Assembly (NCBI RefSeq): GCF_001677475.2
Contig: NZ_CP015229.1
Reading direction: 5' to 3' (one strand)
DNA: 64,000 nucleotides
Source of the DNA: Escherichia coli
GTDB taxonomy: Bacteria > Pseudomonadota > Gammaproteobacteria > Enterobacterales > Enterobacteriaceae
Shown one piece after another: positions 11,550 through 32,152 of the stretch; within the stretch, counting starts at the first letter, position 1, and the number at the start of each line of letters is the position of its first letter. The notes beneath the pieces are model-generated. The model was not told the origin of the DNA. It did no database searches and saw only the letters and a program-made list of their open reading frames with translations. The position numbers and the translations under genes were made by a program.

Positions 11550-11561
11550 TAATTTTTACGT

Positions 11562-12820: not shown

Positions 12821-12983
12821 GTCGTAAAAAATGCGCAGAGCCCCTGAGGTGACCTCCGGCAGGACACTGTCTCAGGCCCTCTGTGATAACCCGAACGGTC
12901 GTCTCCGGACTGACGGTTGAATTTTCAGCGTTGTTTTTTTAATGTAAAAAACCGGTTACGGGTAAGGCTGTGAGGAGGGAGTT

Positions 12984-13184
12984 ATGGTGATACGCAAAAA
13001 GAAGTGCAGGGACTGTGGAAACGCGATTACTCATAATACAGTGTGTTGCCCGTATTGTGGTTCTGTCGACCCCTTCGGCTATTACCGGAATACAGACCGT
13101 ATCGTTACCATACTGCTGGCACTGATTATTGTGGTCCTGCTGACTACTGTCAGCGTCAGTGTGTATATACTGTGTAGCTGGTGA
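12984..13184 (+). CDS. Small zinc-ribbon plus single-transmembrane hypothetical protein
   Basis: 66 aa; CRDCGN...CCPYCGS followed by hydrophobic IVTILLALIIVVLLTTVSVSVYIL. Confidence 0.3.
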   Translation: MVIRKKKCRDCGNAITHNTVCCPYCGSVDPFGYYRNTDRIVTILLALIIVVLLTTVSVSVYILCSW

Positions 13185-14240: not shown

Positions 14241-14256
14241 CCCCCCCCCCCCCCCC
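14241..14256. repeat. Homopolymeric C16 tract
   Basis: Direct read: gcaa-cccccccccccccccc-ggga at 14241-14256. Confidence 0.85.
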
Positions 14257-14420
14257 GGGATTCCGCTACGGCTCTGCCATCGCAATCCCCCCGTTTATCT
14301 CCGGACAGCCAGATTCCCGATTATTTTTTACGTTTCTCCCCGGTTGTTATGCCGGTGAAGGTGGCGCGCTGTTTTCATGACCACACCGGCTGGTTTAACA
14401 ACATCCGGAGGAACATTCTC

Positions 14421-14627
14421 ATGGCTACCCCAGTTTCGCTGATGGATGACCAGATGGTCGACATGACGTTTATCACTCAACTGACCGGCTTAACCGATAA
14501 GTGGTTTTACAAACTCATCAAAGATGGGGCCTTTCCTGCCCCCATCAAACTGGGTCGCAGTTCCCGCTGGCTGAAAAGCGAAGTGGAAGCCTGGCTGCAG
14601 GCGCGGATTGCTCAGTCCCGTCCGTAA
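14421..14627 (+). CDS. AlpA-family phage-type transcriptional regulator
   Basis: 68 aa from ATG at 14421 with GGAGG 9 nt upstream; FITQLTGLTDKWFYKLIKDGAFPAPIKLGRSSRWLKSEVEAWL matches the AlpA HTH pattern. Confidence 0.65.
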   Translation: MATPVSLMDDQMVDMTFITQLTGLTDKWFYKLIKDGAFPAPIKLGRSSRWLKSEVEAWLQARIAQSRP

Positions 14628-14720
14628 TTTTTAACCACTAACCCTTCGCCCAAAGCAGACGCAATCTCCGGCCTGCCGGCGGCGCTCTGCTGCCTGTTAT
14701 CCCCCGTGAGGAATATGAAA

Positions 14721-15323
14721 ATGAAACAACAGTATCAGACCCGTTACGAGCTGCTCCATGAAAACTACCAGAAATGGCTGACCGGCTTCACCCGGCACGC
14801 CGTATCATGGGGCGTGTGTCATCCGAATATCTACTATTTCCATAATCTGACGCCCGGGTGGGTGTCATTCAATGGCGAAAAACCGGAGATTGCCATCGTT
14901 CCCCAGAGTCTGCACCGGCTGATTTATGGTCCGGACAAACGGAGCTCCCCGTCTCTGGGTGATGATCTGATAGTGAATTTATGCACCAGCGAACACCTGC
15001 TGGTTCATCATCCGATGCTGGAAGGGATCCTGCTATCTGAATGTGAGCGCCTGAAGCAACATTCTCTGGCAAACAAACTGATCAGCCTCTTCCGTCAGTT
15101 TGGCGGCACGGAGTTACGTCTCAAACTGGTCTGGCTCTGCTGGCTTGATTTAATGACCGGAAACAGCCTTGACGACTGGACGAAAAACCTGAAACACAAA
15201 TCAGAAAAAGATCTGGAGCAATGGATCATTGCACGTCAGGGTCAGAGTGAACCACTGACAAATCTGATGGATCAGTACGTGCTTATGGCATACCGTACAT
15301 CGGTTGATGCCGCTCACAGTTGA
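14721..15323 (+). CDS. Hypothetical protein (about 200 aa), no recognised family
   Basis: Uninterrupted ORF directly downstream of the AlpA-like gene, RBS-like GAGGA upstream; start choice (14706/14715/14721) uncertain. Confidence 0.4.
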   Translation: MKQQYQTRYELLHENYQKWLTGFTRHAVSWGVCHPNIYYFHNLTPGWVSFNGEKPEIAIVPQSLHRLIYGPDKRSSPSLGDDLIVNLCTSEHLLVHHPMLEGILLSECERLKQHSLANKLISLFRQFGGTELRLKLVWLCWLDLMTGNSLDDWTKNLKHKSEKDLEQWIIARQGQSEPLTNLMDQYVLMAYRTSVDAAHS

Positions 15324-16125
15324 TGTCTGAGAACCACAGGGCTGGCAGTTGAAAACCAGCCCTGTGGTAAAATACAGTAATAGCGGCGTACATCAGGCAC
15401 GCCGCTCACTCGTCCACAGATCATATACGTCATTATACTGCGCGATAACGGAGGGCTTCAGCACCCGGTCATTTCTGAGCGGGTATGAATACCATTGATG
15501 ATGCGAAGCAGCCACGGGCAGAAACGTTCTTCACAACCAGGTGCCTCCATCTTCACTGCAGGCTGAATGTGCCGGCTTGTTATCCACCAGATAATGGTAT
15601 GCTCCGGTACATGCATACCCCGGTGACTATAAACGCACTGAATCATAGCCTCCCACCTCAGCAGGAGGCAGTCAGCTTTCAGGCGGAAAAACGTTGCAGT
15701 TAAAGATCGTGAGAATCGCTGTTTCGTTGCATAGCAACCTGAACAGTTGTAGTGAAACATTTTCCTGCATCAGCACATGGTCAGGGGCCGTCTGTATGGC
15801 GTGGAATACTGATGTTTCGGCTGATGGCAAGCCTCATTCTCTGTGGAAAAAGGGGCGCGCATTAGCTTCTCAACCAGAGAGCGTCACAAAGACAAATATT
15901 GCTGAAAATCGCATTCATCGTTCAGACGTGAATGCCCGGAGACAAAAGCCGCTGTCCGTACAGCCCCCCTCTGACCTGAACAAAAAGCATACACACAACA
16001 GGCTCACCTGCCCCCGAAAAACCATAACTTCAGCAATACCAGTGACACCAGCACGTTACCTCAGTGCCACATCTTTAGACCGCGATCAATCTGAAATGTG
16101 ACTATCGGGGCAATATCCCTGCTTT

Positions 16126-16515
16126 GTGGTACACGATAACCAGAAAACATCCCCTGAACCGCCAGCCAGAAAGACTGGCCACAAAAGGGGTAAGCTGAAA
16201 TCGTTTATGGATTACATCGACATATGCCTAGCAGAGAATGTCCGGAATGACGAGATTATCTTTGCGGAGATTAAGGCAATGGGCTATACGGGCCGACGTT
16301 CCATGCCGCGTTACTACATTCAGCCCGGACGTAAAATGCGCCCGTCAAAAAGAACGGTTCGCTTCGAAACTCAGCCAGGATACCACCTCTCCGTCACACC
16401 CGGGAAGAAGTTGATATGGTGGTTGCCGGACAACAGCGCTCCTGGATTGACTGCTGCATCACTCAACCACGCTGAATATCAAAGGAGAGCGTTACCGGTT
16501 AAAAGAGAAACGTAA
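16126..16515 (+). pseudogene. IS21-family IstA N-terminal remnant
   Basis: PEPPARKTGHKRGKLKSFMDYIDICLAENVRNDEIIFAEIKAMGYTGRRSMPRYYIQPGRKMRPSKRTVRFETQPGY closely parallels the IS21 IstA N-terminal region as recalled; homology stops after about 80 residues. Confidence 0.55.
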
Positions 16516-17706
16516 AGCTATGGTGATGACCCAAAACGCAACGCCTGTCAGTGAGGATGAAATGGTGAAAAGCGGACAGCATCAGTAACGGAAGTATCTT
16601 AGCGGGTACGAAAATGGCAGGATCGTGACATTGACAGAATATCTCCTGATCATCTTGAATGACTGCAGTTGCTGTGGAAAAGTAAGCTATCTCCACCCAC
16701 GGCACCACTTAACAGGCATTCCGTAACTTCCCCCAGACTTACTATGACGCATTATCGGTGCACTGAAAACAGGAGAGTGCGCTTAAAACCGCAGACCGCA
16801 TGCGGGTGTTACTGCATGACAGTCTGGCCGTATTGTGAGATGTCGGCAGGAACCGATGTCCGCGCAGGGGGGAACTTCCTGTAGTACCTGACGCTTCAAA
16901 TGGTATTAACCGTAGGGCGTTGTTGGTTCCGGATCGCGGAAATGGGAGCACAGGTCTGCTACGGGGTGTACCTCTGACAGTAAATCCGGCTCGCTCATCT
17001 GACAGCCTCTCTCCCGGAAAAGACCAAAAATGAGATCGTCTCCTCAACAGCAGAGAAAAGGTCTTGACAGACAGGCTACATTGCATACGATTTATGAAGA
17101 AAAAGACAGCAAATATGGAGGTTATAGCGGAGAACACCCTACGAAATTCCTATGAAAAACGATTGGAAAAAATATCAAATTCGATTCGTTTTTATATGCT
17201 TTTTGGGAGCGTGGCGATGACGAACTGTTGCATGTACAGAGGAGAATGCACCCGGAAGCACCAGAATCATCCAGAAAGGCAGAACGATTACGCATCAAAC
17301 CAGGAGACAGCAATATCACGGTAATATACTGATTTAAAATGAATTTACAGCAATACGTGAAAACATTTTTTACTTAAAGGAGACAGATGCGCTGAAGAGA
17401 GTGCAGGTATTTTTATATAAAAATGAGAAGTTTACGGGATGTATATCCGGCACACTATGACCGGAGAATATCAGTCAAGCTTAAAAAGGCAATAAATACA
17501 GTGAGTTAAATACACAGAGAAAACGTAGTATCAGAGGGTACATCTTACAACAGAGACTGAATTTCCGGTTTTTCATAACCGGCGCATTTCGGAAAGTGCA
17601 GGCGGCCAGGAGGTTTTCTGACGCCACTACCTAGTAGATTGTTCTGTACATCATGTACGGAGGTTTTTGTTTGCTTTTTTAAAATCTGCAAATGTGAGAA
17701 GAGCAG

Positions 17707-18873
17707 GTGAGGTGTATTGTGGGAAAGGAACTGGATGATATCTGCACCAGCTGTCCGTATATCGATGCTGTAAAACGGCACAAACAACAGCTCGGTGCCA
17801 TAGAGGAATATACACAGTGGTTAAAAAAAGAACCACGGGCATCTTATTTTTTTCTGTTCCGGCTGTATACCCGCATTCACAATACATTTTTCCCCCAAAA
17901 GCAACAACTCCCGTTCACTCCCGGTGGCACTCACTGCCCGGAACCTGATGTCACCCTTCGGGACTTAACGCTTTCCCCGGGCTACCACAGTGATTATGCC
18001 CCTCACCCCATTCCGGAGATGGACAGTTCTATTGTTGTTCCCCCCACTAATGAAAACACCTCGCCTCCGGAAGATACTCCCGACAACACTCCGGCCGGAG
18101 GCAATACCGGACAAGCGGAAAAGACCAGAAACGCAGGACTCACACCCATTCCTGAAAAACGTTCAGGAATGCCCCCGGAACATCTGCGGTTTGCCATGGG
18201 TTTTCCATCGCAACCGAAGATTGCCGGTCCCAGAGAAAAGCCGATGCGCACCGTGCATCCGGATAATATCTACCGTGAAATTATATGGTTCTGCTCCAGT
18301 TACCTGCTGAAATCCGGACCAGAGGCTACGAGGACGATTATCAACTCAGTATTCTCTGAATGGGCCAGCATAAACAATGATTACCCCTCCCCCTTTTCGT
18401 GGGTGGACAGCAGGGACAGTGAACAGTGTGACTGGTTATGGAACGCCATGCAGGTCCGGTGTGTGGGAACCCCGCTGAATCCCCTTACCCCGGAGCAGAA
18501 ATACTGGTTCGCCTGCGCCACATTTGATAACTGGGAAGGCTGGAATGAGCAACAGGTACAGTTTTTACTGGAAAGTAATCCCAGACGAAACAGAGCGAAG
18601 TTTGCGATAAACTCCTTCCAGACTCTCGGGGTTAAACAGCATAAAGCAGTTCTTCTTGATGAACTGAAAAGTGCCCGGGAGCAACAAAAAAGGCGTGATG
18701 AACGTGCTGATGGTTCCGTCCCGCTGAAACTGTCCGGAAAAATCCACAAACAGCTTGAAAGTGTTGCCCGAAGTCGTGGTGTCCCCCCCAAAAAACTGCT
18801 GAATGAAATGATTGAGCAGGCGTACCGGGATTTGGTGGCAACCAGGCAGAACAGCCAGATCGATTCCAGATAA
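17707..18873 (+). CDS. Hypothetical protein with Pro/Thr-rich segment and C-terminal ribbon-helix-helix-like tail
   Basis: 388-codon ORF from GTG (first in-frame ATG at 18019); low-complexity PPTNENTSPPEDTPDNTP; C-terminal LKLSGKIHKQLESVARSRGVPPKKLLNEMIEQAY resembles an RHH/CopG-type motif. Confidence 0.4.
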   Translation: MRCIVGKELDDICTSCPYIDAVKRHKQQLGAIEEYTQWLKKEPRASYFFLFRLYTRIHNTFFPQKQQLPFTPGGTHCPEPDVTLRDLTLSPGYHSDYAPHPIPEMDSSIVVPPTNENTSPPEDTPDNTPAGGNTGQAEKTRNAGLTPIPEKRSGMPPEHLRFAMGFPSQPKIAGPREKPMRTVHPDNIYREIIWFCSSYLLKSGPEATRTIINSVFSEWASINNDYPSPFSWVDSRDSEQCDWLWNAMQVRCVGTPLNPLTPEQKYWFACATFDNWEGWNEQQVQFLLESNPRRNRAKFAINSFQTLGVKQHKAVLLDELKSAREQQKRRDERADGSVPLKLSGKIHKQLESVARSRGVPPKKLLNEMIEQAYRDLVATRQNSQIDSR

Positions 18874-18956
18874 TTTCAGACATATATTATCTCCGTGAAT
18901 CCCCCGCCACCTTTCCGGTGTGCGGGGTTTTGTCTTTTTTCACCGGGAATACATGT

Positions 18957-19829
18957 ATGAATCCGTCTGATGCCATTGAGGCAATTGAAAAACCACTTTC
19001 TTCCCTGCCTTACTCGCTTTCCCGTCACATCCTGGAACATCTGCGCAAACTCACCAGTCACGAACCCGTGATTGGCATTATGGGTAAAAGCGGGGCCGGT
19101 AAATCCTCACTCTGTAATGCGCTGTTTCAGGGGGAGGTCACACCGGTCAGTGATGTTCACGCCGGCACCCGGGAAGTGAAGCGTTTCCGTCTGAGTGGAC
19201 ACGGTCACAGCATGGTTATCACTGACCTGCCCGGGGTGGGCGAGAGCCGGGAGCGGGATGCAGAGTATGAAGCTCTGTACCGTGACATTCTGCCCGAACT
19301 GGACCTGGTACTGTGGCTGATTAAAACCGATGACCGTGCCCTGTCTGTGGATGAGTATTTCTGGCGACACATCCTGCACCGGGGACATCAGCAGGTGCTG
19401 TTTGTGGTGACGCAGGCCGATAAAACGGAGCCCTGCCATGAATGGGATATGGCCGGTATTCAGCCTTCTCCCGCACAGGCACAGAACATTCGCGAAAAAA
19501 CGGAGGCGGTATTCCGTCTGTTCCGGCCCGTACATCCGGTTGTGGCCGTATCGGCCCGCACCGGCTGGGAACTGGATACGCTGGTCAGTGCGCTCATGAC
19601 AGCGCTTCCCGACCATGCCGCCAGTCCCCTGATGACCCGCCTGCAGGACGAGCTGCGCACGGAATCTGTCCGCGCTCAGGCCCGTGAACAGTTTACCGGT
19701 GCGGTGGACCGGATATTTGACACGGCGGAGAGCGTCTGTATTGCCTCTGTTGCATGCACGGTTCTGCGTGCCGTCCGTGACACGGTGGTCTCTGTTGCCC
19801 GCGCTGTATGGAACTGGATTTTCTTCTGA
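18957..19829 (+). CDS. YeeP/YkfA/YfjP-family small GTPase
   Basis: P-loop GIMGKSGAGKSS, switch-like DLPGVGE and G4-like region; sits immediately upstream of the Ag43 gene as in CP4-44-type modules. Confidence 0.7.
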   Translation: MNPSDAIEAIEKPLSSLPYSLSRHILEHLRKLTSHEPVIGIMGKSGAGKSSLCNALFQGEVTPVSDVHAGTREVKRFRLSGHGHSMVITDLPGVGESRERDAEYEALYRDILPELDLVLWLIKTDDRALSVDEYFWRHILHRGHQQVLFVVTQADKTEPCHEWDMAGIQPSPAQAQNIREKTEAVFRLFRPVHPVVAVSARTGWELDTLVSALMTALPDHAASPLMTRLQDELRTESVRAQAREQFTGAVDRIFDTAESVCIASVACTVLRAVRDTVVSVARAVWNWIFF

Positions 19830-19944
19830 ACACTCTGCCAGGGGAAATGCCTGATTACATTGCGTTAACCAACTGAAAACATGACACAAACACCTCATAC
19901 CCCTCCTGTTTCTCTTGCGTGGCCGCCTTGTTATTAATAGAATA

Positions 19945-19988
19945 AAACGATCGATAAAACAGGTATCGATCGTTACTATCGATCGTTT
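19945..19988. promoter_or_regulatory. Ag43 phase-variation switch (three GATC sites, OxyR-binding region)
   Basis: GATC at 19949-19952, 19968-19971 and 19981-19984 within AACGATCGATAAAACAGGTATCGATCGTTACTATCGATCG, about 220 bp upstream of the Ag43 start codon. Confidence 0.7.
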
Positions 19989-20201
19989 ATAGTGGTTAAT
20001 GGCCTGCGAAAAGGCAGCTGAATCTCTTCATCATGCAGAACGGAATTGCACACAACGGACTGATACTTCTCTGGCGGATGAGAGAGGGGAAGCATTTATG
20101 TCCGGGAAAAACCACTTTATCTGACCATGCTGTTTTGTACCTGCCGGTATCCACATTTGTGGGTACCGGCTTTTTTATTCACCCTCTGTAAGGAAAAGCT
20201 G

Positions 20202-23048
20202 ATGAAACGACATCTGAACACCAGCTACAGGCTGGTATGGAATCACATTACAGGCACCCTGGTGGTGGCTTCCGAACTGGCACGCTCACGGGGAAAAGGC
20301 GCCGGTGTGGCGGTTGCTCTGTCTCTTGCTGCTGTCACGTCAGTCCCGGCACTGGCTGCTGACACGGTTGTACAGGCGGGAGAAACCGTGAACGGCGGAA
20401 CACTGACAAATCATGACAACCAGATTGTCCTCGGTACGGCCAACGGAATGACCATCAGTACCGGTCTGGAGTATGGGCCGGATAACGAGGCCAATACCGG
20501 CGGGCAATGGATACAAAATGGCGGTATCGCCAACAACACTACTGTCACCGGTGGTGGTCTTCAGAGAGTGAATGCCGGAGGAAGCGTTTCAGACACGGTT
20601 ATCAGTGCCGGAGGCGGACAGAGCCTTCAGGGGCAGGCAGTGAACACCACTCTGAACGGCGGTGAGCAGTGGGTACATGAAGGCGGGATTGCAACGGGTA
20701 CCGTCATTAATGAGAAGGGCTGGCAGGCCGTCAAATCCGGCGCAATGGCAACCGACACGGTTGTGAATACCGGCGCGGAAGGGGGACCGGATGCAGAAAA
20801 TGGTGATACCGGGCAGTTTGTTCGCGGAAATGCCGTACGTACCACCATCAATAAAAATGGTCGTCAGATTGTGGCTGCTGAAGGAACGGCAAATACCACT
20901 GTGGTTTATGCCGGCGGCGACCAGACTGTACATGGTCACGCACTGGATACCACGCTGAATGGGGGGTACCTGTATGTGCACAACGGCGGTACGGCGTCTG
21001 GCACTGTTGTAAACAGTGACGGCTGGCAGATTATCAAGGAAGGTGGTCTGGCGGATTTCACCACCGTTAACCAGAAAGGCAAACTGCAGGTGAACGCCGG
21101 TGGTACAGCCACGAATGTCACCCTGACGCAGGGAGGCGCACTGGTCACCAGTACGGCGGCAACCGTCACCGGCAGCAACCGTCTGGGCAATTTCACTGTG
21201 GAAAACGGTAATGCTGACGGTGTTGTTCTGGAGTCCGGTGGTCGCCTGGATGTACTGGAGGGCCATTCAGCGCAGAAAACATTGGTGGATGACGGCGCTA
21301 TCCTGGCAGTGTCTGCCGGTGGTAAGGCAACAGATGTCACCATGACATCCGGTGGTGCCCTGATTGCAGACAGTGGTGCCACTGTTGAGGGGACCAATGC
21401 CAGCGGTAAGTTCAGTATTGATGGCATATCCGGTCAGGCCAGCGGCCTGCTGCTGGAAAATGGCGGCAGCTTTACGGTTAATGCCGGGGGACAGGCTGGC
21501 AACACCACTGTCGGACATCGTGGAACACTGACGCTGGCTGCCGGGGGAAGTCTGAGTGGAAGAACACAGCTCAGTAAAGGCGCCAGTATGGTACTGAATG
21601 GTGATGTGGTCAGTACCGGCGATATTGTTAACGCAGGAGAGATTCACTTTGATAATCAGACGACACAGGATGCCGTACTGAGCCGTGCTGTTGCAAAAGG
21701 CGACTCCCCGGTAACGTTCCATAAACTGACCACCAGTAACCTCACCGGTCAGGGTGGCACCATCAATATGCGTGTTCGCCTTGATGGCAGCAATGCCTCT
21801 GACCAGCTGGTGATTAATGGTGGTCAGGCAACCGGCAAAACCTGGCTTGCGTTTACAAATGTCGGAAACAGTAACCTCGGGGTGGCAACCTCCGGACAGG
21901 GTATCCGGGTTGTGGATGCACAGAATGGTGCCACCACAGAAGAAGGTGCGTTTGCCCTGAGTCGCCCGCTTCAGGCCGGCGCCTTTAACTACACCCTGAA
22001 CCGTGACAGCGATGAAGACTGGTACCTGCGCAGTGAAAATGCTTATCGTGCTGAAGTCCCCCTGTATGCCTCCATGCTGACACAGGCAATGGACTATGAC
22101 CGGATTCTGGCAGGCTCCCGCAGCCATCAGACTGGTGTAAGCGGTGAAAATAACAGCGTCCGTCTCAGCATTCAGGGCGGTCATCTCTGTCACGATAACA
22201 ACGGCGGTATTGCCCGTGGAGCCACGCCGGAAAGCAGCGGCAGCTATGGCTTCGTCCGTCTGGAGGGTGACCTGCTCAGAACAGAGGTTGCCGGTATGTC
22301 TCTGACGACAGGGGTGTATGGTGCTGCAGGCCATTCTTCCGTTGATGTTAAGGATGATGACGGCTCCCGTGCCGGCACGGTCCGGGATGATGCCGACAGT
22401 CTGGGCGGATACCTGAATCTGGTACACACGTCCTCCGGCCTGTGGGCTGACATTGTGGCACAGGGAACCCGCCACAGCATGAAAGCGTCATCGGACAATA
22501 ACGACTTCCGCGCCCGGGGCTGGGGCTGGCTGGGCTCACTGGAAACTGGTCTGCCCTTCAGTATCACTGACAACCTGATGCTGGAGCCACAACTGCAGTA
22601 CACCTGGCAGGGGCTCTCCCTGGATGACGGCCAGGATAACGCCGGTTATGTGAAGTTCGGGCATGGCAGTGCACAACATGTGCGTGCCGGCTTCCGTCTG
22701 GGCAGCCACAACGATATGACCTTTGGCGAAGGCACCTCATCCCGTGACACTCTGCGCGACAGTGCAAAACACCGTGTGAGTGAACTGCCGGTGAACTGGT
22801 GGGTACAGCCTTCTGTTATCCGCACTTTCAGCTCCCGGGGTGACATGAGCATGGGTACAGCCGCAGCCGGCAGTAACATGACGTTCTCACCCTCACAGAA
22901 TGGCACATCACTGGACCTGCAGGCCGGACTGGAAGCCCGTGTCCGGGAAAATATCACCCTGGGCGTTCAGGCCGGTTATGCCCACAGTGTCAGCGGCAAC
23001 AGCGCTGAAGGCTATAACGGTCAGGCCACGCTGAATGTGACCTTCTGA
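20202..23048 (+). CDS. flu: Antigen 43 self-associating autotransporter
   Basis: MKRHLNTSYRLVWNHITGTLVVASELARSRGKGAGVAVALSLAAVTSVPALAADTVV N-terminus, repetitive beta-helical passenger, C-terminal beta-barrel ending ...GYNGQATLNVTF; 948 aa from the ATG at 20202. Confidence 0.9.
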   Translation: MKRHLNTSYRLVWNHITGTLVVASELARSRGKGAGVAVALSLAAVTSVPALAADTVVQAGETVNGGTLTNHDNQIVLGTANGMTISTGLEYGPDNEANTGGQWIQNGGIANNTTVTGGGLQRVNAGGSVSDTVISAGGGQSLQGQAVNTTLNGGEQWVHEGGIATGTVINEKGWQAVKSGAMATDTVVNTGAEGGPDAENGDTGQFVRGNAVRTTINKNGRQIVAAEGTANTTVVYAGGDQTVHGHALDTTLNGGYLYVHNGGTASGTVVNSDGWQIIKEGGLADFTTVNQKGKLQVNAGGTATNVTLTQGGALVTSTAATVTGSNRLGNFTVENGNADGVVLESGGRLDVLEGHSAQKTLVDDGAILAVSAGGKATDVTMTSGGALIADSGATVEGTNASGKFSIDGISGQASGLLLENGGSFTVNAGGQAGNTTVGHRGTLTLAAGGSLSGRTQLSKGASMVLNGDVVSTGDIVNAGEIHFDNQTTQDAVLSRAVAKGDSPVTFHKLTTSNLTGQGGTINMRVRLDGSNASDQLVINGGQATGKTWLAFTNVGNSNLGVATSGQGIRVVDAQNGATTEEGAFALSRPLQAGAFNYTLNRDSDEDWYLRSENAYRAEVPLYASMLTQAMDYDRILAGSRSHQTGVSGENNSVRLSIQGGHLCHDNNGGIARGATPESSGSYGFVRLEGDLLRTEVAGMSLTTGVYGAAGHSSVDVKDDDGSRAGTVRDDADSLGGYLNLVHTSSGLWADIVAQGTRHSMKASSDNNDFRARGWGWLGSLETGLPFSITDNLMLEPQLQYTWQGLSLDDGQDNAGYVKFGHGSAQHVRAGFRLGSHNDMTFGEGTSSRDTLRDSAKHRVSELPVNWWVQPSVIRTFSSRGDMSMGTAAAGSNMTFSPSQNGTSLDLQAGLEARVRENITLGVQAGYAHSVSGNSAEGYNGQATLNVTF

Positions 23049-23168
23049 CAGAACCATCGCCTCTTTGTGGTCCCGGTCATCATGATCGGGACCCGGACCG
23101 GCGCAACGGATATTCAACGCCACATTCGCTGGCATTAACAATAACATGATATTCATCACGGAGTGACT

Positions 23169-25685
23169 ATGTTACAGATAGTCGGCGCGCTGATCCTGCT
23201 GATAGCAGGATTTGCCATTCTTCGCCTTTTGTTCAGAGCATTAATCAGCACGGCTTCTGTGCTGGCAGGGCTTATATTGCTGTGTCTGTTCGGCCCGGCC
23301 TTACTGGCTGGCTATATCACCGAACGCATAACACGGTTGTTCCATATTCGCTGGCTGGCAGGCGTATTTCTGACGATTGCCGGAATGATCATCAGCTTCA
23401 TGTGGGGACTTGATGGTAAACATATCGCGCTGGAGGCTCACACCTTTGACTCTGTGAAATTTATTCTGACCACCGCTCTCGCCGGTGGTCTGCTGGCTGT
23501 TCCCCTGCAGATCAAAAACATTCAGCAGAACGGGATCACACCAGAAGATATCAGCAAGGAAATTAACGGGTATTACTGCTGTTTTTATACTGCCTTTTTC
23601 CTTATGGCATGTTCTGCATGCGCACCATTGATCGCGTTACAGTACGATATTTCACCGTCACTGATGTGGTGGGGCGGGTTGTTGTACTGGCTGGCTGCAT
23701 TAGTGACGCTGCTATGGGCGGCCAGCCAAATCCAGGCGCTGAAAAAACTGACCTGTGCCATCAGCCAGACACTGGAAGAACAACCGGTGCTCAACAGTAA
23801 ATCGTGGCTGACCAGTTTGCAAAACGATTACAGCCTTCCTGACTCACTGACGGAGCGCATCTGGCTGACGCTCATTTCTCAACGGATTTCCCGGGGAGAG
23901 CTGAGGGAATTTGAACTGGCAGACGGAAACTGGTTACTGAACAATGCCTGGTATGAAAGAAACATGGCAGGTTTTAACGAACAGTTGAAAGAGAACCTGT
24001 CATTCACACCTGATGAACTGAAAACGCTCTTCCGGAACCGCCTGAATTTATCACCGGAAGCGAATGACGATTTTCTCGATCGTTGCCTGGACGGCGGTGA
24101 CTGGTATCCCTTTTCAGAAGGTCGCCGTTTTGTATCATTCCATCACGTGGATGAGCTTCGTATCTGTGCCTCCTGCGGGCTGACAGAAGTACATCATGCC
24201 CCGGAAAATCATAAGCCGGATCCGGAATGGTACTGCTCCTCTCTTTGTCGCGAAACAGAAACACTGTGTCAGGAAATTTATGAACGCCCTTACAACTGTT
24301 TTATTTCCGATGCAACGGCGAATGGTCTGATTCTCATGAAACTGCCGGAAACCTGGAGTACAAATGAGAAAATGTTTGCTTCCGGAGGGCAGGGACATGG
24401 GTTTGCCGCTGAACGGGGAAACCATATTGTCGACAGAGTCCGTCTGAAAAACGCACGGATCCTCGGTGATAATAATGCCAGAAATGGAGCAGACAGACTG
24501 GTCAGCGGAACAGAAATCCAGACGAAATATTGTTCAACTGCAGCCCGTAGCGTCGGTGCGGCATTCGACGGACAAAACGGACAGTATCGTTACATGGGAA
24601 ATAATGGCCCCATGCAACTGGAAGTCCCCCGTGATCAGTATGCCGGCGCTGTTGAAACCATGAGGAATAAGATCCGCGAAGGTAAAGTACCCGGTGTAAC
24701 CGATCCCGCAGAAGCGTCCCGGCTGATTCGTCGGGGACATCTGACTTATACTCAGGCCCGTAATATCACCCGGTTCGGGACCATCGAATCGGTCACTTAT
24801 GATATTGCCGAGGGTTCGGTTGTCAGTCTGGCGGCCGGAGGGATCAGTTTTGCACTGACGGCATCGGTCTTCTGGCTCAGCACCAGCGATCGCGATGCAG
24901 CCCTGCAGACAGCTGCTGTCCAGGCAGGAAAAACCTTCACCCGCACACTGGCTGTCTACATCACAACCCAGCAACTCCACCGGCTCAGTGTTGTTCAGGG
25001 TATGCTGAAGCACATTGATTTTTCGACTGCCAGCCCGACTGTCCGACTGGCTCTTCAGAAGGGGACCGGTGCAGGAAATATCAGTGCCCTGAACAAAGTA
25101 ATGAAGGGTACGCTGGTGACATCTCTGGCACTGGTAGCTGTCACAACCGGCCCTGACATGATCAAAATGTTGCGGGGACGGATCTCCGGTGCGCAGTTCA
25201 TCAGGAATCTTGCCGTGGCATCTTCCGGTGTGGCAGGTGGTGCTGTCGGGTCAGTGGCGGGCGGAATACTGTTCAGTCCACTGGGACCATTTGGTGCACT
25301 GACAGGGCGTGTGGTTGGCGGTGTTCTGGGGGGAATGATTGCCTCCGCTGTATCAGGAAAAATTGCCGGAGCGCTGGTTGAAGAAGATCGCGTCAAAATT
25401 CTGGCAATGATTCAGGAGCAGGTGACATGGCTTGCCGGCAGTTTCCTGCTGACCGGACATGAGATTGAAAATCTGAACGAGAATCTGGCCCGTGTTATCG
25501 ATCAGAATGCTCTGGAGATCATTTTCGCCGCCGGTATACAACAACGGGCCGCGACCAATATGTTAATCAAACCACTGGTGGTCAGTATCATCAGGCAACG
25601 CCCCGTCATGGAATATGATGCATCCCATCTCGGCAATATGGTTAACCGACTGGAAGAAGCATTACCCCCGGAGTTACCGGCATAA
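23169..25685 (+). CDS. YeeR-like inner-membrane protein (uncharacterised)
   Basis: About 838 aa; several N-terminal hydrophobic helices, central Cys cluster CASCGLTEVHH...YCSSLC, Gly-rich C-terminal helices (GVAGGAVGSVAGGILF...VVGGVLGGMIASAVSG); position right after flu as for yeeR. Confidence 0.5.
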   Translation: MLQIVGALILLIAGFAILRLLFRALISTASVLAGLILLCLFGPALLAGYITERITRLFHIRWLAGVFLTIAGMIISFMWGLDGKHIALEAHTFDSVKFILTTALAGGLLAVPLQIKNIQQNGITPEDISKEINGYYCCFYTAFFLMACSACAPLIALQYDISPSLMWWGGLLYWLAALVTLLWAASQIQALKKLTCAISQTLEEQPVLNSKSWLTSLQNDYSLPDSLTERIWLTLISQRISRGELREFELADGNWLLNNAWYERNMAGFNEQLKENLSFTPDELKTLFRNRLNLSPEANDDFLDRCLDGGDWYPFSEGRRFVSFHHVDELRICASCGLTEVHHAPENHKPDPEWYCSSLCRETETLCQEIYERPYNCFISDATANGLILMKLPETWSTNEKMFASGGQGHGFAAERGNHIVDRVRLKNARILGDNNARNGADRLVSGTEIQTKYCSTAARSVGAAFDGQNGQYRYMGNNGPMQLEVPRDQYAGAVETMRNKIREGKVPGVTDPAEASRLIRRGHLTYTQARNITRFGTIESVTYDIAEGSVVSLAAGGISFALTASVFWLSTSDRDAALQTAAVQAGKTFTRTLAVYITTQQLHRLSVVQGMLKHIDFSTASPTVRLALQKGTGAGNISALNKVMKGTLVTSLALVAVTTGPDMIKMLRGRISGAQFIRNLAVASSGVAGGAVGSVAGGILFSPLGPFGALTGRVVGGVLGGMIASAVSGKIAGALVEEDRVKILAMIQEQVTWLAGSFLLTGHEIENLNENLARVIDQNALEIIFAAGIQQRAATNMLIKPLVVSIIRQRPVMEYDASHLGNMVNRLEEALPPELPA

Positions 25686-25760
25686 CGGCTATTCTGCGCC
25701 TTTTACGTTTTATCACCTGATTTGTCAGTGTCATCGTCATGACTCAGAGAGGTAAATACC

Positions 25761-26216
25761 ATGATTCACCTGTTCAAAACCTGCATGATTACCGCCTTCA
25801 TTCTGGGGTTAACGTGGTCTGCCCCACTCCGGGCACAGGATCAACGTTACATCAGTATACGCAATACAGATACGATATGGCTCCCGGGAAATATTTGTGC
25901 TTACCAGTTCCGGCTGGATAATGGCGGAAACGATGAAGGATTTGGCCCCCTCACCATCACTCTGCAACTCAAAGACAAATATGGTCAGACGCTGGTGACC
26001 AGAAAAATGGAAACGGAAGCTTTTGGTGACAGTAATGCCACGCGAACCACAGACGCATTTCTGGAAACGGAGTGCGTGGAAAATATCGCCACAACCGAAA
26101 TCATTAAAGCAACTGAAGAAAGTAACGGCCATCGTGTCAGTCTGCCGTTATCGGTTTTCGATCCCCAGGACTACCATCCACTGCTAATTACCGTTTCCGG
26201 AAAAAACGTTAACTGA
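25761..26216 (+). CDS. Secreted hypothetical protein
   Basis: 151 aa with signal-peptide-like MIHLFKTCMITAFILGLTWSAPLRA; RBS AGAGAGG upstream. Confidence 0.45.
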   Translation: MIHLFKTCMITAFILGLTWSAPLRAQDQRYISIRNTDTIWLPGNICAYQFRLDNGGNDEGFGPLTITLQLKDKYGQTLVTRKMETEAFGDSNATRTTDAFLETECVENIATTEIIKATEESNGHRVSLPLSVFDPQDYHPLLITVSGKNVN

Positions 26217-26294
26217 TCCCTGAACTCAGTTTCATGCTTCAGCCTCTGTCACAACGCGTGGCAGAGGCTTTTTATTTATCAGGAGAAAACAGAT

Positions 26295-26528
26295 ATGCCG
26301 GGTTACACAGAGTATGTTCTGGCTGAAGGATCTTTCTCATACGGGCAGGCGGTTGCTGTCATAACAGCTTACCGCAATGTGTTTATCCAGAATGACCCGG
26401 GAATGCATTTCCGTTGGGTTATCCGCAACGCGGAAGGTCAGCGACGCTGGAGCTACCGGAATTCTGAACCCGATGCCGGAAAGGTGCTTAATACGCAGCT
26501 CGCCAGTGACGGTCTTCTCAGACAATAA
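26295..26528 (+). CDS. DUF905-type small protein (YkfF-like)
   Basis: 77 aa [30 protein letters not shown]...; AGGAG RBS; typical member of this island module as recalled. Confidence 0.5.
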
Positions 26529-26627
26529 ACGTCATTCATTTCACCCATCAGGCCGCGTCTTCTCCGGGAGACGTGGCTTTTTCATTTATTACACCAGTAA
26601 ATCTTAACCACCGATAAGGAGCAAATT

Positions 26628-27446
26628 ATGCGACTAGCCAGTCGTTTTGGTTATGCGAACCAGATACGCCGTGACCGTCCGCTGACACACGAAGAACTGA
26701 TGCACTATGTTCCCGGTATTTTCGGTGAAGACCGGCATACTTCCCGCAGTAAACGATATGCGTACATTCCCACTATCACCGTACTGGAAAGCCTGCAGCA
26801 GGAAGGTTTTCAGCCATTCTTCGCCTGCCAGACCCGCGTGCGCGACCCGGGCCGCCGGGGATACACCAAACACATGCTGCGTCTGCGCCGTGACGGGGAG
26901 ATAAACGGACAACATGTCCCTGAAATCATCCTGCTGAACTCCCATGACGGTACCTCCAGCTACCAGATGCTGCCGGGTTACTTCAGGTTCGTCTGCCAGA
27001 ACGGATGCGTCTGTGGTCAGTCTCTGGGGGAAGTGCGTGTTCCACACCGGGGAAATGTAGTGGAGAAAGTTATCGAAGGGGCTTACGAGGTGGTGGGCGT
27101 GTTTGACCGGATAGAGGAGAAGCGTGATGCCATGCAGTCTCTGGTTCTGCCGCCACCGGCACGCCAGGCGCTGGCACAGGCGGCACTGACTTACCGTTAT
27201 GGTGACGAACATCAGCCGGTCACCACCGCTGACATTCTGACACCACGACGCAGGGAGGATTACGGTAAGGACCTGTGGAGCGCATATCAGACCATCCAGG
27301 AGAATATGCTGAAAGGCGGAATTTCCGGTCGCAGTGCCAGAGGAAAACGTATCCACACCCGTGCCATTCACAGCATCGACACGGACATTAAGCTCAATCG
27401 CGCATTGTGGGTGATGGCAGAAACACTGCTGAAGAGTATGCGCTGA
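26628..27446 (+). CDS. DUF932-type protein (YafZ/YfjQ-like)
   Basis: 272 aa; family resemblance to YafZ/YfjQ from cryptic-prophage modules, from memory. Confidence 0.55.
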   Translation: MRLASRFGYANQIRRDRPLTHEELMHYVPGIFGEDRHTSRSKRYAYIPTITVLESLQQEGFQPFFACQTRVRDPGRRGYTKHMLRLRRDGEINGQHVPEIILLNSHDGTSSYQMLPGYFRFVCQNGCVCGQSLGEVRVPHRGNVVEKVIEGAYEVVGVFDRIEEKRDAMQSLVLPPPARQALAQAALTYRYGDEHQPVTTADILTPRRREDYGKDLWSAYQTIQENMLKGGISGRSARGKRIHTRAIHSIDTDIKLNRALWVMAETLLKSMR

Positions 27447-27536
27447 TGCCTTTTCCCTGAAAGCGCAGTTCTGACTCATGTCCGTCCCTGCCCCGCGACT
27501 TCTTCCATTCATTTACTTTTTATAAGGAATAATCTC

Positions 27537-28022
27537 ATGACAACCGTTTCGCATAATTCCACCACACCTTCTGTTTCCGTAACCGCTGTATCAGAGAATA
27601 ACCCGCCTCAACTGGTTGCCACCCTCGTCCCTGATGAACAGCGCATCAGCTTCTGGCCGCAGCACTTTGGCCTCATTCCACAGTGGGTGACCCTGGAGCC
27701 CCGTGTCTTCGGCTGGATGGACCGTCTGTGCGAAGACTACTGCGGTGGTATCTGGAATCTGTACACCCTGAACAACGGCGGGGCATTTATGGCACCCGAA
27801 CCGGATGACGATGATGACGAAGCATGGGTACTGTTCAATGCCATGAACGGTAACCGCGCTGAAATGAGCCCGGAAGCCGCCGGCATTGCTGCCTGTCTGA
27901 TGACGTACAGTCATCATGCCTGTCGTACGGAGAATTATGCCATGACAGTTCATTATTACCGGCTGCGGGATTACGCCCTGCAGCATCCGGAATGCAGCGC
28001 CATTATGCGCATCATCGACTGA
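27537..28022 (+). CDS. Antirestriction protein (KlcA/ArdB-like; YfjX/YafX type)
   Basis: 161 aa with acidic stretch PEPDDDDDEAW and conserved position immediately upstream of the RadC-like gene. Confidence 0.6.
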   Translation: MTTVSHNSTTPSVSVTAVSENNPPQLVATLVPDEQRISFWPQHFGLIPQWVTLEPRVFGWMDRLCEDYCGGIWNLYTLNNGGAFMAPEPDDDDDEAWVLFNAMNGNRAEMSPEAAGIAACLMTYSHHACRTENYAMTVHYYRLRDYALQHPECSAIMRIID

Positions 28023-28037
28023 ATGGAGGCAGGGACA

Positions 28038-28514
28038 ATGCAGCAGCTTTCCTTTCTGCCCGGAGAGATGACGCCCGGCGAGCGCAGTCTCATTCTGCGG
28101 GCCCTGAAAACCCTGGACCGCCATCTTCATGAACCCGGCGTGGCCTTCACCTCCACCCGTGCAGCACGGGAATGGCTGATTCTGAACATGGCGGGACTGG
28201 AGCGTGAAGAGTTCCGGGTGCTGTATCTGAACAACCAGAATCAGCTGATTGCCGGTGAAACCCTCTTCACCGGCACCATCAACCGCACGGAAGTCCATCC
28301 CCAGGAAGTGATTAAACGCGCCCTGTATCACAATGCCGCTGCTGTGGTGCTGGCACACAATCACCCGTCCGGTGAAGTCACCCCCAGCAAGGCAGACCGC
28401 CTTATCACGGAACGTCTGGTACAGGCACTGGGCCTGGTGGATATCCGGGTGCCGGACCATCTGATAGTCGGTGGCAGCCAGGTTTTCTCCTTTGCCGAAC
28501 ACGGTCTGCTTTAA
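28038..28514 (+). CDS. RadC-like JAB/MPN-domain protein (YeeS/YfjY/YkfG type)
   Basis: JAMM-like motif HNHPSGEVTPSKAD; GGAGG RBS 8 nt upstream of the ATG at 28038. Confidence 0.7.
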   Translation: MQQLSFLPGEMTPGERSLILRALKTLDRHLHEPGVAFTSTRAAREWLILNMAGLEREEFRVLYLNNQNQLIAGETLFTGTINRTEVHPQEVIKRALYHNAAAVVLAHNHPSGEVTPSKADRLITERLVQALGLVDIRVPDHLIVGGSQVFSFAEHGLL

Positions 28515-28582
28515 CCCGTCACCGTCACAACTACATCACACTTGTTTTCACTTTTATCTTCTGTCTTCAGAGGTATCCCATC

Positions 28583-28804
28583 ATGAAAATTATCACCCGT
28601 GGTGAAGCCATGCGTATTCACCAACAGCATCCTGCATCCCGTCTTTTTCCGTTCTGTACCGGTAAGTACCGCTGGCACGGCAGCGCTGAAGCGTATACCG
28701 GTCGTGAAGTGCAGGATATTCCCGGCGTTCTTGCCGTGTTTGCTGAACGCCGTAAGGACAGTTTTGGCCCGTATGTCCGGCTGATGAGCGTCACCCTGAA
28801 CTAA
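28583..28804 (+). CDS. DUF987 protein (YeeT-like)
   Basis: 73 aa; position between the RadC-like and antitoxin genes as in CP4-44. Confidence 0.6.
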   Translation: MKIITRGEAMRIHQQHPASRLFPFCTGKYRWHGSAEAYTGREVQDIPGVLAVFAERRKDSFGPYVRLMSVTLN

Positions 28805-28882
28805 GTCAGGAAGGGCATTCTGATGAGCCGAATTATCGCCACCATTGAACTATTCTTAACTGATTTCTGTGAGGACTTTATC

Positions 28883-29251
28883 GTGTCAGACACACTGCCC
28901 GGGACAACGCATCCCGACAACAACAACGACCGCCCCTGGTGGGGGCTACCCTGCACCGTGACGCCCTGTTTCGGTGCACGTCTGGTGCAGGAGGGTAACC
29001 GGTTGCATTACCTTGCAGACCGCGCCGGTATCAGAGGCCGGTTCAGCGACGCGGATTCGTACCACCTGGACCAGGCCTTTCCGCTGCTGATGAAACAACT
29101 GGAGCTCATGCTCACCAGCGGTGAACTGAATCCCCGCCATCAGCATACCGTGACACTGTATGCGAAGGGGCTGACCTGCGAAGCCGACACCTTCGGCTCC
29201 TGTGATTACGTTTATCTGGCTGTTTATCCGACGCCCGAAACGAAAAAGTAA
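28883..29251 (+). CDS. cbeA: CbeA (YeeU)-type antitoxin of a type IV toxin-antitoxin pair
   Basis: 122 aa from GTG at 28883: [51 protein letters not shown]...; directly upstream of the CbtA-like gene. Confidence 0.75.
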
Positions 29252-29340
29252 ACCACCGGAATAACCCTCTGCTCCGGCCTGGTGTTTTCACCACGCCACT
29301 GTCCCATTTTTTATCTCTGCATATCAGGAAAATCTTCAGT

Positions 29341-29715
29341 ATGAAAACATTACCCGACACGCATGTACGGGAGGCATCGAGCTGCCCGTCTCCCGTCACC
29401 ATCTGGCAGACACTGCTCACCCGGTTACTGGACCAGCATTACAGCCTTACGCTGAATGACACACCGTTCGCGGATGAACGTGTGATTGAGCAGCATATTG
29501 AGGCAGGCATTTCACTGTGTGATGCGGTGAATTTTCTCGTGGAAAAATACGCGCTGGTGCGTACCGACCAGCCGGGATTCAACACTTGTCCCCGCTCTCA
29601 GTTAATAAACAGTATTGATATCCTCCGGGCTCGCCGGGCGACCGGCCTGATGACCCGCGACAATTACAGAACAGTAAATAACATTACCCTTGGTAAGCAT
29701 CCGGAGAAACGATGA
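29341..29715 (+). CDS. cbtA: CbtA (YeeV)-type toxin (cytoskeleton-targeting)
   Basis: 124 aa [70 protein letters not shown]...; classic CbtA family sequence. Confidence 0.8.
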
Positions 29716-30200
29716 AACTGGCCCTGATGCTGGAAGCCGACAGCATTAATGTGCAGGCACTGAACATGGGGCGAATTGTCGTTGACGTCGATGGTGTTAA
29801 TCTCACTGAACTGATTAACAAGGTCGCTGAAAACGGTTATTCACTCCGCGTGGTGGAGGAATCCGACCAACAGTCAACCTGCACACTACCACCGTTTGCA
29901 ACCCTTGCCGGCATACGCTGCAGTACCGCACATATCACGGAAAAGGATAACGCCTGGCTGTACTCGCTGTCACACCAGACCAGTGACTTCGGTGAATCAG
30001 AATGGATTCATTTCACAGGTAGCGGATATCTGTTACGTACCGATGCGTGGTCATATCCGGTTCTGCGGCTTAAACGCCTGGGGCTGTCAAAAACGTTCCG
30101 TCGTCTGGTTGTCACACTCATCCAACGTTATGGCGTCAGTCTCATTCATCTGGATGCCAGCGCTGAATGTCTGCCGGACCTGCCCACTTTCGACTGGTAA
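29712..30200 (+). CDS. YeeW-like hypothetical protein
   Basis: 162 aa; start overlaps cbtA stop; GGAG RBS. Confidence 0.45.
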
Positions 30201-30211
30201 CCAGGAACAAC

Positions 30212-30409
30212 ATGAAATCATTAACCACGGAAACCGCACTGGATATTCTGATTGCGTGGCTACAGGACAATATCGACTGCGAATCGGGAATTATCTTTGA
30301 CAACGATGAGGATAGAACGGATTCGGCAGCACTGTTGCCCTGTATCGAACAGGCCAGAGAGGATGTCCGTACCCTGCGTCAGCTGCAGTTTCTGCAACAG
30401 AACCGGTGA
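30212..30409 (+). CDS. Small hypothetical protein
   Basis: 65 aa from ATG at 30212 with AGGA upstream; followed by a terminator hairpin. Confidence 0.35.
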   Translation: MKSLTTETALDILIAWLQDNIDCESGIIFDNDEDRTDSAALLPCIEQAREDVRTLRQLQFLQQNR

Positions 30410-30438
30410 GTCTTACTCACCAGACTTCATTCCACTGA

Positions 30439-30470
30439 CGCCAGCCTGAATACGGCTGGCGTTTTCGTTT
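30439..30470 (+). terminator. Rho-independent terminator-like hairpin
   Basis: CGCCAGCC-tgaatac-GGCTGGCG followed by TTTTCGTTT. Confidence 0.5.
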
Positions 30471-30493
30471 ATCTGCAAAAAGGAATATCGATT

Positions 30494-31336
30494 ATGTCTG
30501 AAATCACAGCCTCTCGTCCGGAAGTGGTCAACGGGCATACGGACGTTATCTGCTCAACCAGTATCCGCCACATTCTGGCTGTACGAAAGAGTACATTGCT
30601 GCAAATCGACACACTTATCCGACAACTGGCTGAAATATCAGCAATGACAGAAAGTATTAGAGGTAAAACGGCTCTGGACTGGGCCATGAAACAGGATTTT
30701 CGCTGCGGTTGCTGGCTGATGGAGAAACCGGAAACCACAATGAAAGCCATCACACGCAATCTTGATCGCGAACTCTGGCGTGATCTGATGCAACGTTCCG
30801 GGATGCTGAGTCTGATGGATGCGCAGACCCGGGACACATGGTACAGGTCACTGGAATATGATAATTTTCCGGAAATCAGCGAAGCGAACATTCTGAGCAC
30901 ATTTGAACAACTGCACCAGAACAAAGATGAAGTGTTTGAACGGGGAGTGATCAACGTCTTCAAAGGGCTGAGCTGGGATTACAAAACCAACTCACCCTGT
31001 AAATTTGGCAGTAAAATTATCGTCAACAATCTGGTGAGGTGGGACCAGTGGGGATTTCATCTTATCAGTGGAATGCAGGCAGATCGCCTGGCTGACCTGG
31101 AAAGAATGTTGCATCTGCTCAGAGGAAAACCGATCCCCGACAACCGGGGGAATATCACCATTAATCTGGATGACCACATACAGTCCGTTCAGGGTAAAGG
31201 ACGCTATGAAGATGAGATGTTCATCATTAAATACTTTAAGAAGGGATCTGCACACATCACTTTCAAAAGGCTGGAGCTGATTGACAGAATTAACGATATA
31301 ATAGCCAGGCACTTTCCTTCTGTGCTCTCAGCCTGA
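30494..31336 (+). CDS. DUF4942-like hypothetical protein at the island terminus
   Basis: 280 aa; AGGA RBS; last gene before the tRNA-Phe-derived junction; family call from memory. Confidence 0.45.
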   Translation: MSEITASRPEVVNGHTDVICSTSIRHILAVRKSTLLQIDTLIRQLAEISAMTESIRGKTALDWAMKQDFRCGCWLMEKPETTMKAITRNLDRELWRDLMQRSGMLSLMDAQTRDTWYRSLEYDNFPEISEANILSTFEQLHQNKDEVFERGVINVFKGLSWDYKTNSPCKFGSKIIVNNLVRWDQWGFHLISGMQADRLADLERMLHLLRGKPIPDNRGNITINLDDHIQSVQGKGRYEDEMFIIKYFKKGSAHITFKRLELIDRINDIIARHFPSVLSA

Positions 31337-31446
31337 CCCCGAGTTTGATTCCCTTTCGATATCAAAAGGGACTGCGGGTACAAAAGAGGGTACATCTTTC
31401 ACCAAACCAAACAAAATAAACTAATATCAACATGATAGAAGCATTC

Positions 31447-31468
31447 TTCGATTCCGAGTCCGGCACCA
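31447..31468 (+). repeat. Remnant of tRNA-Phe 3' end (T-arm, acceptor stem, CCA): island attR-type direct repeat
   Basis: TTCGATTCCGAGTCCGGCACCA matches the 3' end of E. coli tRNA-Phe except for one missing G in the acceptor stem (from memory); no upstream D or anticodon arm, so not a complete tRNA. Confidence 0.6.
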
Positions 31469-31482
31469 CTAATTCTTAAGAA

Positions 31483-31504
31483 CCCGCCCACAAGGCGGGT
31501 TTTT
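31483..31504 (+). terminator. Rho-independent terminator
   Basis: CCCGCC-cacaa-GGCGGG followed by TTTTT, immediately after the tRNA-derived repeat. Confidence 0.55.
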
Positions 31505-31560
31505 GCTTTTGGATCTGACAATAACCTTCACGAAAAAAATTAGCTTATAAAGTCTGGGGG

Positions 31561-31598
31561 AATTACTCTCGCCACGTTAACGAGAGTAATTTTATTGA
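31561..31598 (+). terminator. Strong hairpin (11-bp perfect stem) with T-rich tail
   Basis: AATTACTCTCG-ccacgttaa-CGAGAGTAATT then TTATTGAT; lies between the island junction and the gspM stop. Confidence 0.4.
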
Positions 31599-31615
31599 TA
31601 TTAATCTCCTGATAC

Positions 31616-32152
31616 TTACCCCCCTCCAAATTCCAGCCGCTGCACATTCACCATCCCTGGCTTCTCACCTACGCTGACATCAATTTGTGTCACCCGCAGC
31701 GCATATTTTTCATCCAGTGCGTTTAACCATTTCAGCAGGTCATTAAACACCACAGGTTCTATCCAGACCTGAATATTCTCCCCACGCTCGGCTATCCGCT
31801 TGATGACCACCGAGTGCGCGGAAGCACTGTCACTGATGACCCGCGATACCTGCGCAGGCGTTGTTGTGGCAGATTTTCGCGCTGCAATAATATCCGGCGC
31901 GGCGCTCTTCAGTCGCGCGTTCATCGCCACCAGCTGCTGCAACATCGTCTCCTGTTGTTCTATCCGTTCGCTCAACGGCTGCCAGATGAGGACGCAATAT
32001 CCGGCGCTAAACAGGAACACCACCGCTGCCAGTAACATGCCCTTTTCACGCGGAGAACGCCCCGCCAGGTGTTGTGTCAGCCAGTGTTCGCCACGGCTTA
32101 ACTGGCGTTCACGCCATTGCTGAAAATAGTGAATAAATTTATCGCGTAACAT
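31616..32152 (-). CDS. gspM: Type II secretion system protein M
   Basis: 178 aa, single N-terminal TM helix; last gene of the gsp operon. Confidence 0.75.
   Translation of the reverse strand: MLRDKFIHYFQQWRERQLSRGEHWLTQHLAGRSPREKGMLLAAVVFLFSAGYCVLIWQPLSERIEQQETMLQQLVAMNARLKSAAPDIIAARKSATTTPAQVSRVISDSASAHSVVIKRIAERGENIQVWIEPVVFNDLLKWLNALDEKYALRVTQIDVSVGEKPGMVNVQRLEFGGG

Follow-up and report, generated by a model that had tools for sequence, protein, structure and literature searches.

An imperfect copy of the tRNA-Phe 3' end as the very probable attR of a GI-pheV-family genomic island in Escherichia coli

A short segment that resembles the 3' end of tRNA-Phe, followed closely by a hairpin, lies between DNA rich in mobile elements and the gsp genes in the window, that is, in the whole 64,000-nucleotide stretch of Escherichia coli DNA analysed here. 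The locus raises two questions: whether the segment is the attR left by an island that integrated at a tRNA-Phe gene, and where the loss of one G from it comes from. The segment was aligned with the pheV region of E. coli K-12 MG1655, which is island-free at pheV. The 22-mer TTCGATTCCGAGTCCGGCACCA (window 31447-31468, + strand), the core of the putative attR, equals the final 23 nt of K-12 pheV with GG replacing GGG, which amounts to one gap of 1 nt and no substitutions; the copy of the tRNA-Phe 3' end lacking one G that the earlier note had described is thereby confirmed. In pheV these 23 nt run from the 7-nt T-loop (TTCGATT) through the 3' strands of the T-stem (CCGAG) and of the acceptor stem (TCCGGGC) to the discriminator A and the terminal CCA, and the block of identity starts at the first base of the T-loop and stops at CCA. 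Even at three mismatches the 22-mer has a single occurrence in the window, and it was matched in none of 100 dinucleotide-preserving shuffles. No tRNA gene was detected in the 64 kb by ARAGORN (0 genes), and the Rfam scan of the window returned only C0719 and IS102 RNAs and no tRNA. Short-word BLAST with the whole pheV gene located no further pheV fragment and no core of a tandem island in the window, and the 53 nt at the 5' end of pheV left no trace upstream of the attR or anywhere else in it. An integrase gene is likewise absent from the 64-kb window.

Colinearity with K-12 starts exactly at 31447, and the window leftward of that base is unrelated to K-12. From there on, save for the gap given in Table 1, it is identical to K-12 through the tRNA 3' end (minus the G), an 8-nt spacer, the hairpin and the intergenic DNA up to the end of yghD. 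The breakpoint seen against the intact tRNA-Phe gene and the island-free K-12 chromosome thus coincides with the first base of the core. The extent that had been proposed for the island, from 1 to about 31470, agrees with this arrangement, K-12 homology being found only from 31447 and mobile or accessory DNA everywhere to its left. The gsp locus had been placed directly after the junction, and it is there: the first gene encountered is yghD, on the opposite strand and with 94% identity at the protein level to K-12 YghD. The chromosomal T2SS-beta cluster to which it belongs (gspC-M, yghG/gspS-beta, pppA and sslE) reaches to approximately 48149, and the glc genes come next.

The chromosomal part of the window has a peculiarity of its own. 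The backbone from 31447 to 64000, chiefly its segment 50000-64000, is unusually far from all complete RefSeq E. coli genomes, and nearly all of the 4,595 genomes that match it fall in the identity band of 95-99%. The best identities among complete E. coli genomes are 98.1% for the junction, 97.6% for the core (14 kb of glc/ygh genes) and 95.3% for the T2SS-beta region (24.5 kb). Neither window positions 1-60 nor the 31-nt junction had an exact match in 100,044 species-representative genomes. This backbone probably belongs to a lineage that the sampled E. coli phylogroups do not include, such as a cryptic Escherichia clade.

To the left of the junction the order of the island is a pap-like fimbrial operon, an IS-rich stretch, YagK/YfjJ and zinc-ribbon genes, an AlpA-like gene, a GTPase gene, Ag43, IrmA and the yee module (coordinates in Table 1). 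This DNA is accessory or mobile in character, as indicated by the ISL3, IS21, IS3, IS256 and IS110 transposases, Ag43, the yee module and the fimbrial genes. Its modules match islands at pheV (H10407, CFIAFB20180540) and at leuX (F1140), and the matches to other genomes are mosaic, none of them covering at least 80%; for window positions 1-25000 the maximum coverage by any complete E. coli genome is 56%. The pap-like operon occupies window 1-1750 and continues past the left window edge. Its nearest relatives are plasmid-borne, at about 92% (E. coli) and 84-86% (E. coli, E. albertii), with many weaker matches in Salmonella plasmids, and positions 1-1742 gave no megablast match in 5,426 E. coli genomes. 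Next, at 1800-11300, IS elements are densely packed; such elements could have rearranged or truncated the island. The AlpA-family gene is, from its family alone, a candidate excisionase or recombination directionality factor. Two larger open reading frames had no family assigned. One, of 388 aa (17707-18873, + strand), lies upstream of the YeeP-like GTPase gene and has no family match, its equivalents in comparator genomes being annotated as hypothetical or, once, as 'replication regulatory protein RepB'. The other, of 840 aa (23163-25685, + strand), stands between the genes for Ag43 and IrmA; it matches no Pfam or NCBIfam family and is a conserved hypothetical at the same place in comparator islands. 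The right end of the island is formed by a CP4-44-like yee module with DUF932, an antirestriction gene, RadC, CbeA/CbtA, DUF5983 and DUF4942, a module that has been tied to CP4-44 in the literature as well (PMC11537424). Within this module a second terminator-like hairpin is located just 5' of the DUF4942 gene (30437-30463, + strand), with 10 pairs, 7 of them G-C, and a T-rich tail.

Table 1. Coordinates of the features of the island and of its junction with the chromosome (positions are those of the window).
Feature	Position	Strand	Basis or remark
Right-hand part of GI-pheV-type island, at least 31.4 kb; left end beyond the window	1..31446	+	No K-12 colinearity; module matches; family scans
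pap-like major fimbrial subunit, cut by the window edge	454 to 1	-	
PapB/DaaA-like regulator	462-701	-	
PapI/FaeA-like gene, divergent	1333-1539	+	
ISL3 transposase, split by IS21-like ISEc10	1810-2139 and 4622-5482		
IS21-like ISEc10	istA 2217-3716, istB 3713-4468		Inside ISL3 transposase
IS100-like element	5584-7271	-	
IS3, frameshifted	7540-8845		
IS256	9007-10101		
IS110 fragment	10784-11281		
AlpA-family helix-turn-helix gene	14349..14627	+	Pfam Phage_AlpA, E = 6.8e-09, above gathering score
IS102 RNA element, 5' of the Ag43 gene	19947-20183		Rfam RF00124, 74.8 bits
Ag43/Cah-family autotransporter adhesin (flu module)	20127..23048	+	Annotation in matching genomes
DUF4942 gene, final island gene	30494..31336	+	Pfam DUF4942, E = 1.7e-66; adjoins attR in comparators too
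Very probable attR core: copy of pheV 3' end, GG for GGG	31447..31468	+	K-12 alignment; identical to published attR TTCGATTCCGAGTCCGG-CACCA
GGCACCA, proposed 7-bp strand-exchange segment	31462..31468	+	Suggested by the GG core at pheV and pheU
pheV-yghD intergenic region, backbone	31469..31615	.	Differs from K-12 only by a 1-base gap, 6 nt before its end
Predicted ancestral rho-independent terminator of pheV	31477..31505	+	Terminator scan, fold energy, K-12 identity
yghD (GspM homologue), last gene of T2SS-beta cluster	31616..32152	-	Protein identity to K-12 YghD; comparator annotation

The hairpin downstream of the core is present exactly as had been claimed: CCCGCC (31483-31488), the loop CACAA (31489-31493) and GGCGGG (31494-31499), followed by TTTTT (31500-31504). 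The terminator scan extends this structure, with its G/C core of 6 bp, to 12 pairs, and the RNA fold has an energy of -18.1 kcal/mol (z = -3.97), none of 200 shuffles being as stable. A GC-rich stem followed by a T-run is the form of an intrinsic terminator, and the hairpin is predicted to be one. The same hairpin is located in K-12 after the intact pheV gene, with the same spacing of 8 nt past CCA. Because the colinearity with K-12 from 31447 onwards covers the hairpin, it is the chromosomal, ancestral terminator predicted for pheV itself. The earlier note had counted the terminator as part of the signature of integration; that part of its reading fails, since K-12 has the identical hairpin right after an intact pheV, and for the same reason the hairpin is ruled out as an island-borne feature. 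The terminator now stands orphaned between DUF4942 and the convergent yghD gene, 141 nt beyond the stop codon of the former and 111 nt from where the latter ends. In that position it may still stop transcripts of the yee module and, less well, those of the gsp operon.

The other end of the island can be viewed in comparator genomes. The 1.2-kb junction between DUF4942 and yghD was found, at a coverage of at least 80%, in 705 of 5,426 complete E. coli genomes. In one comparator, CFIAFB20180540, the order is yqgA, an intact pheV gene with GGG, a gene for an integrase of 421 aa, an island of about 35 kb, DUF4942, an attR identical to that of the window, and yghD. The domains of this integrase (Arm-DNA-bind_3, Phage_int_M and Phage_integrase) correspond to the P4-type heterobivalent architecture. 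At the attL of the same genome the tRNA with GGG is followed by island sequence, AATTCATATCAACGGACCTCCACGGAGGTCCGTTTTT, which forms a strong hairpin with a T-run, and the 71-nt stretch with this hairpin folds at -27.7 kcal/mol (z = -6.83). Since the hairpin at attL is island-borne, the island would give pheV a replacement terminator and leave the old one stranded past attR. The terminator of the island itself, GGACCTCC-ACGG..., a hairpin with a T-run, stands right after the regenerated pheV in CFIAFB20180540, and a second hairpin is located just downstream. In the genome studied here an intact pheV and an integrase gene would lie to the left of the window, and the left boundary would be expected to consist of yqgA, an intact 76-nt tRNA-Phe gene with GGG, AATTCATAT..., a hairpin and a P4-type integrase gene.

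Sequences of this kind have been catalogued before. The attR of 41 GI-pheV islands are given in Table 1 of a recent study (PLoS Genet 2024; PMC11537424), where TTCGATTCCGAGTCCGG-CACCA, the gap included, is listed for 16 reference strains and named a 23-bp imperfect attR; among those strains are APEC O1, S88, ED1a, H10407, 12009, CB9615, 55989, the O104:H4 outbreak strains, 536, 11128 and REL606. In the window the repeat is positioned at the far end of the island, the breakpoint with respect to K-12 falls at the repeat, the DNA on its left is accessory, and the sequence is that of a published attR. We are therefore highly confident that 31447-31468 is the attR of a genomic island of the GI-pheV family. 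The attR repeat that the earlier note had postulated at tRNA-Phe is supported by the breakpoint at 31447, the accessory DNA leftward of it, the comparator with pheV and integrase, and the identity with the published attR. Integration would be accomplished by a P4-type integrase recombining the attP of the island with the 3' end of pheV, and would generate two copies of the core of about 23 nt, one at attL, in the intact pheV at the integrase end, and the other at attR, at the far end. The tRNA would be regenerated at attL and provided with an island-borne terminator, and the far end of the island would be joined to the chromosome at 31447-31468, the chromosome resuming at or within the core.

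The origin of the missing G can be approached through a second integration site. The same island right flank (...GATAGAAGCATTC) with the G-less core is also found at the pheU/cadC site, where, unlike at pheV, AATTCATATAAACGGACCTCC... and an integrase remnant come next. The AATTCATATAAACGGACCTCC flank is what follows the intact pheU gene in K-12, and the remnant is annotated there as yjdQ. Each type of junction, pheV or pheU, was found in about 1,000-1,270 genomes at a coverage of at least 80%, the number varying with the query. A synthetic junction with GGG had exact matches in only three genomes of the pheV type and only three of the pheU type, against at least roughly 90 and 120 genomes for the native GG junctions, a comparison restricted to exact matches, in which genomes with other SNPs in the flanks do not enter the count and which is not a full census. 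Strains 536, REL606, BL21 and C have the GG core. The three genomes per site with the full GGG core could be revertants by slippage or products of a different crossover.

As the G-less core accompanies the same island end at both pheV and pheU, and GGG is rare, the missing G is probably attP-borne. Judging from these junction sequences, we lean towards a gap that is carried by the attP of the island, and does not stem from random decay, with strand exchange taking place in the terminal GGCACCA. If attP has GG, GGCACCA is the only 7-mer common to attP and attB that, as overlap, gives GGG at attL and GG at attR; an overlap located further 5' would place GG in the tRNA and GGG in attR. The G-run of attL (GGG, which keeps the tRNA functional) would then always be chromosomal, and that of attR (GG) would always come from the island. 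A crossover in GGCACCA would also explain the other attR variants published for GI-pheV islands, namely the CFT073-type TTTCATTCCGATTCCGGGCACCA, that of E2348/69, AAAGTTCTCGAGTCCGGGCACCA, and that of SMS-3-5, TTTTATTCCGAGTCCGGGCACCA (PMC11537424, its Table 1), which differ from pheV only 5' of the heptamer. With slightly more reserve, we favour the wider proposal that the gap is an attP allele moved from site to site, that it marks the lineage of the flu/yee island end, and that the P4-type integrases of pheV and pheU exchange strands in GGCACCA and not in the T-loop.

The arrangement of the identity block points in another direction. In the standard model the tRNA gene is interrupted on integration and made whole again by the island, and the far end is marked by a chromosomal fragment that has been displaced (PMC4383910); this implies that the G was lost after integration. 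It is possible, albeit rather unlikely, that the segment is an attR of this displaced-fragment type, with the crossover in the T-loop or at the T-stem/acceptor junction and the G lost later by slippage; the 16 nt past the T-loop would in that case be the 3' end that pheV had on the chromosome before integration, now free of selection. The general model and the crossover subsites described in PMC4383910 are in favour of such an origin, imperfect attR sites are taken in PMC11537424 as changes that stabilise the island, and the 23 nt of identity from the T-loop to CCA begin exactly at the first T-loop base, the classic pattern when the crossover is in the T-loop and a chromosomal fragment is displaced, and hence an argument against an attP-borne gap. 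However, the same one-G gap is present with the same island flank at pheU, and GGG with the exact flanks occurs in only three genomes per site. A displaced fragment would thus need two identical, independent and nearly fixed deletions, or else a gene conversion that stopped 5 nt from where the homology ends, and excision by such a crossover would leave a defective tRNA-Phe gene with GG. In principle, one ancestral G deletion could also have spread between the two sites by gene conversion of the homologous island ends at pheU and pheV, and this likewise counts against the attP-borne gap.

The remaining explanations concern the nature of the segment itself. A tRNA 3' end would equally be present if the segment were what is left of a second tRNA-Phe gene that arose by duplication and decayed to a pseudogene; this is its single point in favour, and the explanation is very improbable. 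The 5' 53 nt of pheV are absent from the window, the sequence upstream is the conserved right end of the island, common to the pheU islands, and the sequence downstream is the one that follows the single pheV gene in K-12. A functional tRNA or a tRNA pseudogene is accordingly rejected, there being no cloverleaf by ARAGORN or Rfam and no 5' half. A chance resemblance to the tRNA-Phe 3' end, without any history of integration, could appeal only to the short length of the match and is refuted as an extremely improbable reading by the shuffles, none of which matched even at three mismatches, by the position exactly at the breakpoint between accessory and K-12-colinear DNA, directly 5' of the pheV terminator, and by the architecture of the comparators, with the junction in hundreds of genomes and pheV plus integrase at the other end.

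The attR of a GI-pheV-family island, the reading preferred here, can be compared with several known systems. With the GI-pheV islands of 536 (PAI V), H10407, REL606/BL21, 55989 and APEC O1 the window shares an identical attR, gap included, the chromosomal site pheV-yghD and the flu/yee right-end modules ending in DUF4942, and comparators have a P4-type integrase beside pheV; it differs from those strains in the cargo of the left part, which consists of the pap-like operon and an IS set of its own. The pheU islands next to cadC, for which insertions at both pheU and pheV have been described as ending in a 22-bp direct repeat with a shift of one base with respect to K-12 (Gut Pathog 2018; PMC6174562), share the island right flank and the GG core, but there the core leads to AATTCATATAAACGGACCTCC... 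and the integrase remnant, whereas here it leads to the pheV terminator and yghD. The pheU site of K-12 (NC_000913.3 4362191-4362626) is attL-like, the gene being followed by the left flank of an island (the AATTCATATAAACGGACCTCC hairpin) and the remnant yjdQ, with no attR; it is the stump of an old island, into which newer islands have integrated in other strains.

The prototype of the integrase family is that of the satellite phage P4 at leuX. As in P4, the comparator integrase is a heterobivalent tyrosine integrase, the att core equals the 3' end of a tRNA gene, and the regenerated tRNA has the integrase gene beside it; the target tRNA is a different one, however, and no recognisable phage or satellite genes for replication or packaging are found in the part of the island seen here. 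The she island (SHI-1) of Shigella flexneri 2a is also located at pheV. Its boundaries are pheV and, as an imperfect direct repeat, about 22 bp of the pheV 3' end. Its genes include an Ag43-like one and ORFs resembling those of CP4, and it reportedly excises through Int and an AlpA-like factor. Unlike the she island, the window contains no sigA, pic or set genes.

For annotation, the analysis sets the exact right boundary of an island of at least 31 kb, which extends to 31446-31468 and is followed by backbone, and it identifies the hairpin next to it as an orphaned tRNA terminator instead of an island feature. The attR, its sequence and its one-base gap were already described in the literature, and only what is proposed here on attP and on the crossover is of some wider value. 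If the gap is indeed attP-borne, this would refine how the boundaries of the pheV and pheU islands, and their supposed "decay", are read.
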